Below, one piece after another: positions 61,301 through 64,000 of a stretch of 64,000 nucleotides of DNA. This DNA comes from an uncultured Methanomassiliicoccales archaeon (GTDB taxonomy: Archaea > Thermoplasmatota > Thermoplasmata > Methanomassiliicoccales > UBA472): contig OW818644.1 of the NCBI GenBank assembly GCA_942492955.1, positions 770,327 to 834,326 on the forward strand. Reading direction: 5' to 3'. The notes beneath the pieces are model-generated. The model was not told where the DNA came from. It worked only from the letters and a program-made list of their open reading frames with translations, and made no database searches. A program made the translations under genes and the position numbers. Within the stretch, counting starts at the first letter, position 1; each line of letters starts with the position of its first letter.

Positions 61301-64000
61301 CCAGCAAGCAAGCCAATAAGTATAAAGGGCGTAGCTGGTACCGCTGGAATCGTAGAGATACATCTTCAAGCCCGAGTCCATGGTGTCGCCGCTGTTGCCA
61401 TTGTGATAATATGATTCCACGAACAGCTTCAGCGATATCTTGTCCACGCGGTTGCTCTGGAACTCCTTCCACACCGTGGCCGTACAGGTATCGAAACCCG
61501 ATGGTCCGTTTTCGAAGGAGACCTCCAGAGATTTGCTGGGTGAATAGGAAATCGAGCTCGAGTATTGTGCGGTCATCCAGTAGTTGTATCCGCCGGAACC
61601 GGACTTGACCGATGTCCATGTGGCATCGAAGTCGAAGAAGTCGACCCGGTCGCCCGCAGAGGTGGACACTGGAAGGGTGTATGAGTCCGCGGCCGAGTAC
61701 TCGGTGACGGACATCCTGCCGGTGGGGTCAGCGCTCCAGAGGAGATTCCCATACTTGTCGTAACCGTTCCTGGAGTACACCCATCCCGCGCCCAGATTGG
61801 ACCTCGTCTCGATGCAGTTGCCCTCGGCGTCGTACTTCAGATAGCTCGCCTGAGGGACGGTCTTGAGGGAATCCTGATAGGTGAGCGTGCCCACCGGGGC
61901 GGAATGGATCCCATCCTTGATCTTGTTCAAGTAGAAGTTGTTAGGAGAGTAGGTGAACTGGTCTCCGTTATGGATCATGGAGACGGCGGGGCTGAGGTAC
62001 AGCGTGTTGCCGTTCCCGTCCTGCACCTCGAAGGTGGCGCTCACAGGATACGATCGGACCACGGCCGGCGCGTCGTAGAGAACGAGCCTCAGGGAGCTGG
62101 ACGAAGCAGTCCCTTGGATGACCGTGCCGTTCTCCAGCGTCATCTTAACCTTGTATCCGGAGGTGAGGCCGTTGATGACCACACCGTTGGGGTAGATCGA
62201 TGTGAGCTCCCATCTCGCCGTACCTCCGTACAAGGCGTACATCACGCCGGTGATGGTCCCAGAAGTGATCGACAGGTTTGAGGCCTTCACCGTAAGCTGC
62301 AGCCATTGACCGGTGATGGTAGGAACATCGCCGCAATAGTATGTGACCGTCGGGTTGAATGTGGTCCCATCCCATTGTATGTCAAAATCGTCCGGGGATC
62401 CGCCCCAGTATGCCATCCTCCAGGCATTGTTGGCATACACGTTGATGGCGATCTCCGAAGGCAACATCCCTTCCTCGAGCCATACGTACTGGGTAAGGAT
62501 GTCGCCGGAAACGATCGCCATTCCAGAGGTGGTCCCGTTGAAGCCGTGATAATGGGTGGGATAGCTGTACGAATAGTAACCGCTCCGGTGATATTTCGTC
62601 CCCGAGATCGAAAAGTCCGAACCGGTCACAGCATCGTCCACCCAGATGAGGTCGCTCTGCCCGTCAGAGACGGATGCGTATTCTATAGAACCTACCGGTT
62701 TGACATCGTTGTTGATACCATCAAGAGCCTGACCGAAACCGCGGACCACCTTGGGCAGGCCGGATATGTGGATGCAGTTGCTCAGGGCATACACGTCCCC
62801 GCCCCAGACGTCTGACATGGGCATCGAGAAAGACCCGTTGCCGACCTTGGTGACTCTGATATAGGCAGGCGGAGCATTGACCGGCAATGACTGGAAGGTC
62901 AAAGTGCCTCCCCTATTCCGATCGAGCAAGACGCCTTTGGAATCGAATATCTCACAGACATAGCTCGAGTCCAACCCGTTAGGGGCGAATGAGGGGCCGG
63001 TGTAGACCCGGACGTTGTCAAACCATATGTTGGCCGCCGGTACGCCTGACTCTGCGGCCTGGAACCGGATGGTGTCGATGTAGCCTGATCCGGTCAGCGT
63101 GGCGCCGCACTTCATCAATTGTCCATTGATGTAGATATCATAGGTGCTGTTCGAATAGCGCACATAGAAGCCGACGTCGTACCAGGTGTTGGACAGGCAG
63201 GGGGCAACCTTTGTCCAGACCGCACCGTTCCAGTACTGGAAATAACCAGAGAGGGACCCGAAATATATCCTTATGTTTCCCGAATTCTCGCCGTTGATGT
63301 AACTTATGACCGAGCTTCCCGTCCGATAGGACGTTTGGATGTAGAATGGACTGGTCTGAACATTGAAAGAATGAGTGACTTGGCTGATGCCGGTTGCTGA
63401 CGTCCTCGACACCTTGACGGCGGGCGCATGCGACGGGTCGAGGCTTCCGTCAAGGGTTGCAGTGCCTGCGGACAGGGATTTGGTCCAATCGGCAAAGTCC
63501 CAGTCATCGAAGGCGTCGTTGAATATGCTAGTGTATCTCGAGTCCAATCCATTAAGAGAGATGGTGAGCCCAGTATAGACCCGTACATTGTCAAACCATA
63601 TGTTGGCCGCCGGTACGCCTGACTCTGCGGCCTGGAACCGGATGGTGTCGATGTAGCCTGATCCGGTCAGCGTGGCGCCGCACTTCATCAATTTTCCATC
63701 GATGTAAATATCATAGGTACTGTTCGAATAGCGCACATAGAAGCCGACGTCGTACCAGGTGTTGGACAGGCAGGGGGCAACCTTTGTCCAGACCACACCG
63801 TTCCAGTACTGGAAATAACCAGAGAGGGACCCGAAATAGATCCTTATGTTTCCCGAATTCTCGCCGTTGATGTAACTTATGACCGAGCTTTCAGTGCGAT
63901 AGGACGTTTGGACGTAGAATGGACTGGTCTGAATGCCGAACGAATGGGTGACCTGGCTTATGCCGGTTGCTGACGTCCTCGACACCTTGACGGCGGGCGC
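58370..64000 (-). CDS. Rhs/YD-repeat polymorphic toxin, 5'-truncated by the window edge
   Basis: The frame is open to position 64000 (APAVKV... precedes the ORF-track start). Many YD repeats are present: YDKYGNLLWSADPTG, YTYDYLGRVTSV, YDTLGRQTSIAY, YAYDEAGRVLT, YHYDSRDRLY. The RHS core terminus is YMDPSTGRFMALDP...NRYVYCANSPLIHTDPTG. A 202-aa C-terminal extension follows. Confidence 0.9.
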   Translation of the reverse strand, partial: APAVKVSRTSATGISQVTHSFGIQTSPFYVQTSYRTESSVISYINGENSGNIRIYFGSLSGYFQYWNGVVWTKVAPCLSNTWYDVGFYVRYSNSTYDIYIDGKLMKCGATLTGSGYIDTIRFQAAESGVPAANIWFDNVRVYTGLTISLNGLDSRYTSIFNDAFDDWDFADWTKSLSAGTATLDGSLDPSHAPAVKVSRTSATGISQVTHSFNVQTSPFYIQTSYRTGSSVISYINGENSGNIRIYFGSLSGYFQYWNGAVWTKVAPCLSNTWYDVGFYVRYSNSTYDIYINGQLMKCGATLTGSGYIDTIRFQAAESGVPAANIWFDNVRVYTGPSFAPNGLDSSYVCEIFDSKGVLLDRNRGGTLTFQSLPVNAPPAYIRVTKVGNGSFSMPMSDVWGGDVYALSNCIHISGLPKVVRGFGQALDGINNDVKPVGSIEYASVSDGQSDLIWVDDAVTGSDFSISGTKYHRSGYYSYSYPTHYHGFNGTTSGMAIVSGDILTQYVWLEEGMLPSEIAINVYANNAWRMAYWGGSPDDFDIQWDGTTFNPTVTYYCGDVPTITGQWLQLTVKASNLSITSGTITGVMYALYGGTARWELTSIYPNGVVINGLTSGYKVKMTLENGTVIQGTASSSSLRLVLYDAPAVVRSYPVSATFEVQDGNGNTLYLSPAVSMIHNGDQFTYSPNNFYLNKIKDGIHSAPVGTLTYQDSLKTVPQASYLKYDAEGNCIETRSNLGAGWVYSRNGYDKYGNLLWSADPTGRMSVTEYSAADSYTLPVSTSAGDRVDFFDFDATWTSVKSGSGGYNYWMTAQYSSSISYSPSKSLEVSFENGPSGFDTCTATVWKEFQSNRVDKISLKLFVESYYHNGNSGDTMDSGLKMYLYDSSGTSYALYTYWLACWSGSTNNKTVSNPSITKCIWGKPATNTWLNPALYPNSDFNIDWSQCVKVRFEIYTYGSWAFIDEFRMYVDDLTFNDLTSAKSSYDHDHLNSWVTSATDPLGHTSHWQYDEIGRVIYQENPDYTNSYTLFDDSANKATVYDELRRKSVVFFDRLGREMKAERYGTGSVVYSVTKKTYNWQDQVATATDEMNRVVTYTYDYLGRVTSVKNPDNTISYTTYDDRNKLVTALDELGHKTVSVFDDLGRLNQTREYITASAFYVTRMAYNAVGQLVTVRQDNGEVTRMSYDTLGRQTSIAYPDAKSESYAYDEAGRVLTATSRSGQVTTSAYDTAGNNIRVTGGGETIRTRYNADGLVSEKVNSLGNISYHYDSRDRLYRTVQKVSPNTYTFTYAYNAVGDVVYVDYPDARRITYLYDRYGRAVDVKMGNTLLLNVTYNPDDSVASKRYCDSNCSVTYTYKTNGMVGKIKAVNVSSGVTILDLNYDFTADGDVSSIKDAFGSAGNEYYWYDSLGRLTKAMANSTFGTIQYGYSSVGNRIWKNEGTNVSSTYTTYNKLTLDGTYSYVYDANGNVFWKNSSAVRYNYIYNAFGQMTEVRKQLYSGGWGALTTVARYYYDANGARAKTEESGTITRYIYAGHDPIYFNSSDGRGQKDIYLSGGLDLRVVSAGESYVYISDALGSTRFVLRNGNKNIQDCMSWAVTYKPFGQIYSPAGTDKFSYTGEIVDSPTGLVYLSARYMDPSTGRFMALDPELGHLSMPQTLNRYVYCANSPLIHTDPTGAFLDTIFDVACLAWDIVELWNDPTPENWGWTAVDVVCTAVPFLPAIGGLVKVGKIIDKGFDAERAADKALDGEKAVERAKDLLESRRMNDAARAPDLVGHLGKSEIMPYGELQKIPLPKGMERHKLLEWRVAKNLGFKSMKDVPAVALTHADHNTITQMLRGHLPYGSKYVDEQVQGQLRGIYAGVYGEGSEWFRAISPYLP
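58373..58978 (-). other. variable C-terminal toxin (CT) region of the Rhs protein
   Basis: The region after the DPTG motif, which I located at 58979-58990 (plus-strand accggtcgggtc). It has a hydrophobic linker of about 55 aa, then about 145 aa with GMERHK and THADHN motifs. No toxin family recognised. Confidence 0.7.
58979..61843 (-). other. YD-repeat shell and RHS core region of the Rhs protein
   Basis: Spans the first recognisable YD unit (YLKYDAEGNCIETRS, aa ~715 of the visible ORF) to DPTG. It is interrupted by a non-YD insert of about 190 aa (61076-61654). Confidence 0.75.
62996..64000 (-). repeat. tandem direct repeat, period 573 bp, encoding duplicated ~140-aa lectin/LamG-like modules
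   Basis: Copy A at 63569-63985 and copy B at 62996-63412 differ by scattered substitutions only. A 106-nt run is identical (63015-63120 = 63588-63693). The linker end APAVKV recurs at the window edge, so further copies upstream are possible. Confidence 0.9.

Follow-up and report, generated by a model that had tools for sequence, protein, structure and literature searches.

The 64,000-nucleotide (nt) stretch analysed here, referred to below as the window, covers positions 770,327 to 834,326 of contig OW818644.1 (assembly GCA_942492955.1) from an uncultured Methanomassiliicoccales archaeon. At its right-hand end the minus strand carries part of a gene of the Rhs/YD-repeat type, and one domain of the encoded protein, called the module in what follows, was found in two adjacent copies. 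This in-frame, lineage-specific tandem duplication is confirmed as real and is an ordinary domain duplication. The protein belongs with the Rhs polymorphic toxins that bear accessory domains of lectin fold, and its domain duplication is fairly young. Taken as a whole, it seems probable to us that the window records the tandem in-frame duplication of a concanavalin-A-like (ConA-like) binding domain in a giant archaeal Rhs toxin.

A repeat search of the window returned two direct copies, 62961–63260 and 63534–63833, which are 93% identical and spaced 573 nt apart. When the sequence was compared with itself base by base at an offset of 573, positions 62945–63427 and 63518–64000 agreed at 437 of 483 nt. 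In the 420-nt core (the first 140 codons), 400 nt (95.2%) and 133 of 140 amino acids (aa) were identical. The longest perfect run between the copies is 106 nt (63015–63120). A first-pass annotation, made from the letters of the sequence, had described two copies at this offset and had placed the perfect run at exactly the same coordinates, and both comparisons agree with it. In blocks of 30 nt, the self-comparison remained at a background of 4–14 matches per block until about position 62970 and reached 22–30 matches per block from 63000 to 63419, where the final block compared is situated. The repeat is thus real, and the similarity is slightly longer than first described, running from about 62960 to the window edge at 64000. 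It is clear that a repeat of such length and identity cannot have arisen by chance.

Over this part of the window only the minus strand is open, and a single frame of 1876 codons extends from the window edge at 64000 to a stop codon at 58370–58372. Because the frame is open through the edge, the window cuts the Rhs gene at its 5′ end. The peptide originally quoted for the repeat was correct as a minus-strand translation, minus being the coding strand. The assignment of the host gene to the Rhs family was also borne out, as three families matched the window protein: PF05593 (RHS_repeat) in five stretches with an E-value of 2.2e-31 and, both above their cut-offs, TIGR01643 (YD_repeat_2x) with 62.9 bits against a cut-off of 15.8 and TIGR03696 (RHS repeat-associated core) with 65.2 bits against 32.5 at residues 1597–1674. 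The core motif 'DPELG...HTDPTG' is visible in the translation. The spacing of 573 nt corresponds to exactly 191 codons, and the copies are adjacent, of equal length and in frame. Tandem Repeats Finder, run on the window with a maximum period of 500, returned no rows, because the period of 573 exceeds this limit and the window holds fewer than two full units of the repeat.

The boundaries of the module were determined with a hidden Markov model (HMM) of the domain derived from family members. The domain starts with 'DAFDDWDFADW' and ends shortly past 'NIWFDNVRVYTG'. The downstream copy 2 is complete (62960–63517, minus strand; residues 162–347 of the open reading frame, ORF; HMM positions 1–186). 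Copy 1, the upstream and extra one, occupies 63533–64000 on the same strand (ORF residues 1–156, HMM positions 31–186) and is cut by the end of the window 30 residues into the domain model. The two are joined by a five-residue linker, TSIFN, at 63518–63532 (minus strand, read in the translation), and the duplication junction lies within or beside this linker. The repeated unit is therefore not about 140 aa long, as first supposed, and consists of 191 aa, that is, one domain of about 186 aa and the 5-aa linker. The hexamer 'ATATTC' is present at the junction of copy 1 and copy 2 and again after copy 2. We considered whether it marks a clean recombination breakpoint and rejected this, as an indel of 3 nt and several substitutions separate the codons ahead of the hexamer at the two places. 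The peptide 'APAVKV' had been taken for a linker whose reappearance at the window edge suggested that the array continues. In the family alignment this peptide is conserved and forms one of the inner strands of the domain (consensus 'AP[AS][LV]K[LV]'). Since it lies inside the domain, it does not speak for a third copy and at the edge marks only the place where copy 1 is cut; a third copy inferred from it was rejected accordingly.

We then asked how old the duplication is. Over the columns of the domain model the two copies are 91.7% identical, and the next closest module is only 55% identical. Measured against the divergence of orthologues, the duplication is recent, as had been proposed, and these sequence comparisons show that it is lineage-specific and postdates the split from the nearest sampled orthologue. 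The term 'near-identical' was nevertheless a slight overstatement. The copies differ with a dN of 0.0245 and a dS of 0.166 (non-synonymous and synonymous substitutions per site), giving a dN/dS of 0.15; in the first 144 codons, 14 codons differ without effect on the amino acid and 7 differ with a replacement. With a dN/dS of 0.15 at a dS of 0.17, both copies have therefore been kept by purifying selection for an appreciable time, so they are not brand new.

The differences between the copies are distributed in patches, and this raises the question whether the duplication might be old, its identity being upheld by ongoing gene conversion. When the 20 differences of the 420-nt core are placed at random, an identical tract of at least 106 nt is obtained in 5.3% of cases, so that the clustering is marginal (P = 0.05), and the patchiness allows some gene conversion without demonstrating it. 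An old duplication would moreover require repeated losses, because the closest sampled orthologues, P0002/P0152 and the locus L005, have a single copy. The related protein P0001, which has three tandem modules, provides a further counterexample, its old duplicates having diverged to 53% and 30–39% identity without homogenisation. The value of 53% in P0001 is that between its copies 1 and 2, whereas its third copy is nearer to the single modules of other proteins; the duplication there was older and independent. We therefore consider an old duplication maintained by conversion improbable. A fairly young duplication is preferred, in which the first domain of a larger insertion (about 186 aa), together with a few flanking residues, would have been duplicated in tandem as a unit of 573 nt (191 aa), probably by unequal or illegitimate recombination and possibly with some later gene conversion.

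The repeat could also be an artefact of assembly, either because two strain alleles about 5% apart were joined or because the repeat was over-expanded, the real gene having one copy. A difference of about 5%, as found between the copies, is also seen between strains; a 573-nt repeat with an identical run of 106 nt is difficult for assemblers that use small k; the window ends within the repeat, and its source is probably a metagenome-assembled genome (MAG). Other observations speak for a genuine duplication. The reading frame is kept across the junction, which coincides exactly with a domain boundary, so that the second domain is complete and the ORF of 1876 codons is uninterrupted. The differences are chiefly synonymous (see the dN/dS above), as would be expected for two expressed paralogues, and the three copies of P0001 show that such arrays exist in the family. 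An artefact thus appears very unlikely to us, and we continue with a real duplication.

The first-pass annotation had read the composition of the repeat as that of a beta-sandwich of the concanavalin/LamG type and had proposed the structure prediction of one module as a check. This prediction was run with AlphaFold2 (AF2) on an alignment of 42 sequences. The model had a mean pLDDT (predicted local distance difference test) of 93.5 and a pTM (predicted template modelling score) of 0.89, with 15 strands and no helix of four or more residues. When the model was compared with the Protein Data Bank (PDB) by Foldseek, the best match was 5mqr, the central beta-sandwich of BT_1020 of Bacteroides thetaiotaomicron (query-normalised TM-score 0.80, root mean square deviation 2.5 Å, E-value 5e-9). 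It was followed by Cip1 (TM-score 0.72), the calreticulin lectin domain (0.64), a glycoside hydrolase of family 16 (GH16; 0.61) and a legume lectin (0.58); the Hc parts of botulinum and tetanus toxins and the lectin domains of Akkermansia and Trypanosoma cruzi sialidases were also found. The sequence profile of the module had one significant match in the PDB, to residues 448–575 of 5mqr_A (E-value 6.6e-5). A single-sequence search of the PDB gave a SHANK2 fragment and a phage portal, which we rejected as weak and implausible. In Pfam, relatives of the module matched Laminin_G_3 (PF13385) or Sialidase-like_CBM (PF22585): PF13385 was matched in 5 of 11 relatives, and P0001 (36.6 bits), P0037 (29.6 bits) and P0127 (30.5 bits for PF13385) exceeded the gathering score. 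The beta-sandwich reading is thus confirmed by four lines of evidence, namely the AF2 model, Foldseek, the profile match and the Pfam matches in relatives, and the predicted ConA-like jelly-roll fold of the module is well supported.

To place the module among its relatives, an exhaustive HMMER search was performed, which retrieved 189 proteins with E-values up to 1e-3. The family members are Rhs proteins of Methanomassiliicoccales and other Thermoplasmata, and one cluster of matches includes WP_019178328.1 from Methanomassiliicoccus luminyensis, annotated as an 'RHS repeat domain-containing protein'. The best matches were proteins of 2600–3300 aa with one module at residues ~1100–1300. Three loci came from scans of genome contigs, two of them in Thermoplasmata MAGs and one in a MAG with the label Euryarchaeota. 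A word-indexed protein search with the module gave no match, although family members are present in that collection; the same type of search with 1000 aa found two distant proteins only, and no relative turned up when genome and metagenome contigs were scanned for exact peptide patterns. Taken by itself, the negative indexed search would wrongly have pointed to an orphan domain.

The nearest relative, P0152, is 54% identical to the window protein over 1537 aa by BLASTP, and its residue 1109 pairs with window residue 159. Since the alignment starts there, copy 2 corresponds to the single module of the orthologue and copy 1 is the extra one. YD motifs are found in P0152 at residues 1038 and 1065, before the module, and at 1663 and 1687, after the inserted block. 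Because these motifs flank the block, the module is the first domain of an insertion of about 530 aa between YD repeats. The description of the repeat as lying on the 5′ side of the Rhs gene, as part of a terminal stalk, is thus not supported, given that in every full-length relative the module sits in the middle of the protein, about 1100 residues from the N-terminus. By homology, the gene should extend by about 1100 codons past the window edge on its 5′ side.

How common is more than one copy? In a search with the local HMM, all but two of about 35 full-length family representatives had one module. The exceptions were P0001, in which three copies stand in tandem, and the distant P0012, which has one tandem-free set of three dispersed copies among its four. 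Exactly one module was present in all 26 loci with a scorable module (3 genome and 23 metagenome loci), and in loci with a complete ORF it was situated at ORF residues ~1130–1200. The window, with its two or more copies, is therefore an exception within the Rhs family, and the earlier expectation that copy number readily varies by recombination is not supported, a single copy being the rule. In non-Rhs proteins the same domain commonly occurs in 2–12 tandem copies (local HMM), and one such multi-copy protein also carries Big_2 immunoglobulin-like (Ig-like) domains. A second inserted domain of the Rhs proteins, which we call JR2, likewise varies in number, with 1–3 copies across the family and two or three in P0003, P0006, P0009, P0019 and P0021 (local HMM). 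As the copy numbers of both the module and JR2 vary, the duplication of inserted domains is recurrent in the Rhs family.

From the comparison with relatives, the complete protein would have about 3000 aa, and the window probably covers two-thirds, the 3′ part, of the giant polymorphic-toxin gene of Rhs/YD-repeat type that encodes it. In proteins of this family, a hydrophobic anchor or signal at the N-terminus is followed by a first YD block and the beta-sandwich insertion of ~530 aa; after these come JR2, the main YD shell and the Rhs core, and the end is formed by a toxin tail that varies. The relatives do begin with a hydrophobic segment, as read from their sequences. We also noticed that residues ~300–700 of relatives P0001–P0033 contain BNR/Asp-box-like motifs, such as 'YRRSSDGQDWSSE' and 'YRCSADGITWDSA' (read from the sequences), which may point to a beta-propeller of the sialidase type preceding the YD shell in these proteins.

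What the module does can be proposed from its fold and its place in the protein. It probably faces outward from the YD shell and may act as a binding domain, most likely for glycans, in which case the second copy would give higher valency or avidity for the target surface or for the surface of the producer itself. Carbohydrate binding by the module, suggested by its closest matches, is a reasonable lead, and a higher avidity from the second copy is plausible; that copy number tunes reach or avidity, as the first-pass annotation proposed, is conjecture. It could be, on the other hand, that the duplication is real and the modules have a role other than glycan binding, as spacers, in binding proteins or as a plug or gate of the shell, the second copy being neutral or adjusting length. 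The ConA-like fold is functionally diverse, with glucanases, lyases, a chaperone and the Hc-N part of botulinum toxin among the Foldseek matches; the positions conserved in the family are mostly those of the core (W, Y, F and the 'D.VR.Y' strand), and one copy suffices in nearly all relatives. The nearest matches in sequence and structure are nevertheless accessory beta-sandwiches of glycan-active enzymes (BT_1020, an arabinanase, the family 35 carbohydrate-binding module (CBM35) of Xyn30D and sialidase CBMs). The tandem arrays in non-Rhs proteins, including the one with Big_2 domains, show an architecture known from surface binding proteins, and both copies in the window are under purifying selection. 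A role other than glycan binding thus seems to us rather unlikely, and we retain the duplication of a putative glycan-binding domain as the preferred reading.

Several points weigh against this reading. Domains with a ConA-like fold also act as enzymes, protein binders and spacers. The module of the window remains below the Pfam gathering score, with 22.8 bits against 27 for PF22585 (Sialidase-like_CBM), and the N-terminal 499-aa segment of the window protein gave 14.7 bits for the same family. One copy is the norm in the family, so the second copy is not needed for function. The two-copy arrangement is that of the assembled sequence, and the total copy number and the upstream architecture are deduced from relatives, as the 5′ part of the gene lies beyond the window.

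The module is followed in the same insertion by further beta-rich domains (61928–62959, minus strand; residues 348–691), which the family alignment divides into three, all of them family-conserved. The first is small and has the motif 'EIFDSKG..DVWGGDVY'; the second contains 'HYHGF...QYVWL...EI..QY...AYWGG...YGGTA.W' and also 'EIAINVY'; the third is characterised by 'INGLTSGYKVKM' and the motif 'GL.SG..VKM.L.NG'. For the first two, Pfam matched neither the window nor any of 10 relatives. The scan of the alignment members, which covered visible ORF residues 158–601, gave matches to the module families only, and the third domain lies outside this stretch. An AF2 model of 444 aa, based on 11 sequences, was good for the module; its residues 295–441, corresponding to the second beta-rich domain, had pLDDT values of 65–88, and confidence was low for residues 180–290, corresponding to the first.

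The local HMM search located JR2 at 61076–61642 (minus strand, residues 787–975), where it is present as a single copy. From its motifs, 'DSGLKMYLYDSSG...YWLACW...FRMYVDDLTFND', it is read as a putative jelly roll. The C-terminal YD/Rhs repeat shell, delimited by PF05593, TIGR01643 and TIGR03696, extends over 58979–61075 on the minus strand and ends in the RHS core.

After the core there is a tail of about 200 aa with the stop codon (58370–58978, minus strand; no family match), and in the ORF list the next frame on the same strand, immediately behind the Rhs gene, is an ORF of 287 aa (57497–58360). Neither the tail nor this ORF gave a Pfam or NCBIfam match. The tail is presumed to be the toxin domain, and the 287-aa ORF is, by its position only, a candidate immunity gene, so that the two form a candidate uncharacterised toxin–immunity pair. 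The tails of the relatives, read from their sequences, differ from that of the window and from each other. The segment just after the core ('FDVACLAWDIVELWNDP...VPFLPAIGG') was seen to recur in P0006 and P0026, the tails of which end differently. The results of a promoter and terminator scan of the region behind the Rhs gene, based on bacterial consensus sequences, did not exceed chance and were set aside.

The genes in the neighbourhood are archaeal housekeeping genes, coding for glycerol-1-phosphate dehydrogenase, two KaiC-type ATPases, CinA and SAICAR synthase, and a further gene of the cytidylyltransferase family is read as nicotinamide mononucleotide (NMN) adenylyltransferase (NMNAT). With such neighbours, a phage or mobile-element origin was considered and set aside. 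The glycerol-1-phosphate dehydrogenase of the window matches a metagenome protein at 96% identity, proteins from Methanomassiliicoccales MAGs at 82% and its M. luminyensis counterpart at 78%, which by itself assigns the window to a Methanomassiliicoccales archaeon. The nearest syntenic relative, the locus L053 (77–84% nt identity), is collinear with the window from 39431 to 56914, that is, to the end of the NMNAT gene. Past this breakpoint L053 has, at its positions 15590–16042, a gene of the archaellin/pilin type where the window has the 287-aa ORF and, beyond it, the Rhs gene. The break in synteny at 56914 suggests that the Rhs locus is a variable region that differs between strains or species.

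Two other parts of the window deserve mention. Between the SAICAR synthase and KaiC genes there is an ORF of 293 aa with an N-terminal hydrophobic segment (53310–54191, minus strand); it has no Pfam match and is absent from L053, where the differing stretch corresponds to 53271–54274. In addition, positions 14000–33000 have a low GC content (0.43–0.48, compared with 0.53–0.58 elsewhere) and form a surface-glycan biosynthesis island. Its genes encode GT2 and GT4 glycosyltransferases, an FkbM methyltransferase, two enzymes of the GDP-mannose-dehydratase type, an NTP transferase, an 810-aa GT-C enzyme similar to AftD and a Polysacc_synt protein, possibly of the flippase type. A 1046-aa ORF in the island (18331–21471) gave no Pfam match.

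Rhs toxins are well studied in bacteria and hardly in archaea, and Methanomassiliicoccales include methanogens of the gut. A full-text literature search with the genus name and 'RHS repeat' found no paper, and a published analysis of the ~3000-aa Rhs family of Methanomassiliicoccales appears to be absent. If the lectin-fold domains of the shell choose the target, their copy number and sequence would offer a handle on the partners of archaeal attack or adhesion. The duplication calls for caution in assembly and annotation, and it offers a natural comparison of one copy with two for binding. It is one more case of domains that decorate a YD shell evolving by duplication and changes no concept; the under-studied archaeal family is of greater interest than the duplication itself.

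Domains of this kind are known from other large toxins and related proteins. Zhang et al. (2012, PMC3482391) described laminin-G, discoidin, RicinB and bulb-lectin adhesion domains in polymorphic toxins, some of them among the RHS repeats, and proposed that they anchor the toxin or improve contact with the target cell. The laminin-G domains in that survey are usually N-terminal, whereas the module of the window is in the middle of the protein and duplicated; archaeal Rhs toxins are mentioned there for Methanosarcina, and Methanomassiliicoccales are not covered. BT_1020, the best structural match to the module (PDB 5mqr, residues ~448–575), shares only 13% sequence identity with it and is a glycoside hydrolase, whereas the window protein is of the Rhs toxin type.

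A parallel in architecture is SGS1 from mosquito saliva, which exceeds 3000 aa in length. Its Rhs/YD repeat sequence is interrupted by a CBM and a lectin domain that lie next to each other on the outer face of the shell, and cooperative binding has been proposed for the pair (PMC9935623). The two domains of SGS1 are 9% identical Ig-like sandwiches (PMC9935623), whereas those of the window are nearly identical ConA-like jelly rolls. SGS1 is moreover an insect protein resembling bacterial Tc/Rhs toxins, and the window protein is archaeal. Teneurins and TcB also have YD shells decorated with inserted or appended beta-propeller and lectin-type receptor domains (PMC9935623). Their decorating domains differ from those of the window. 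To our knowledge, no tandem near-identical duplication has been reported in them.

One could go further and regard the giant Thermoplasmata Rhs proteins as archaeal counterparts of SGS1, teneurins and TcB, in which the lectin-fold domains of the shell would be the organ of target recognition and domain turnover would retarget or strengthen delivery. The duplication in the window would then be a young step in an arms race, perhaps tied to the nearby variable surface-glycan island. The counts that bear on such turnover are 1–4 modules and 1–3 JR2 copies across the family. We give this extension little credence and offer it as speculation. The nearest comparison remains that with the giant Thermoplasmata RHS proteins themselves (WP_019178328.1; P0002/P0152; loci L001–L003 and L005–L028). 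They belong to the same family as the window protein and have the same order of module, beta-rich domains, JR2, YD shell and Rhs core, but they carry one module where the window protein has at least two (95% identical), and their toxin tails differ as well.

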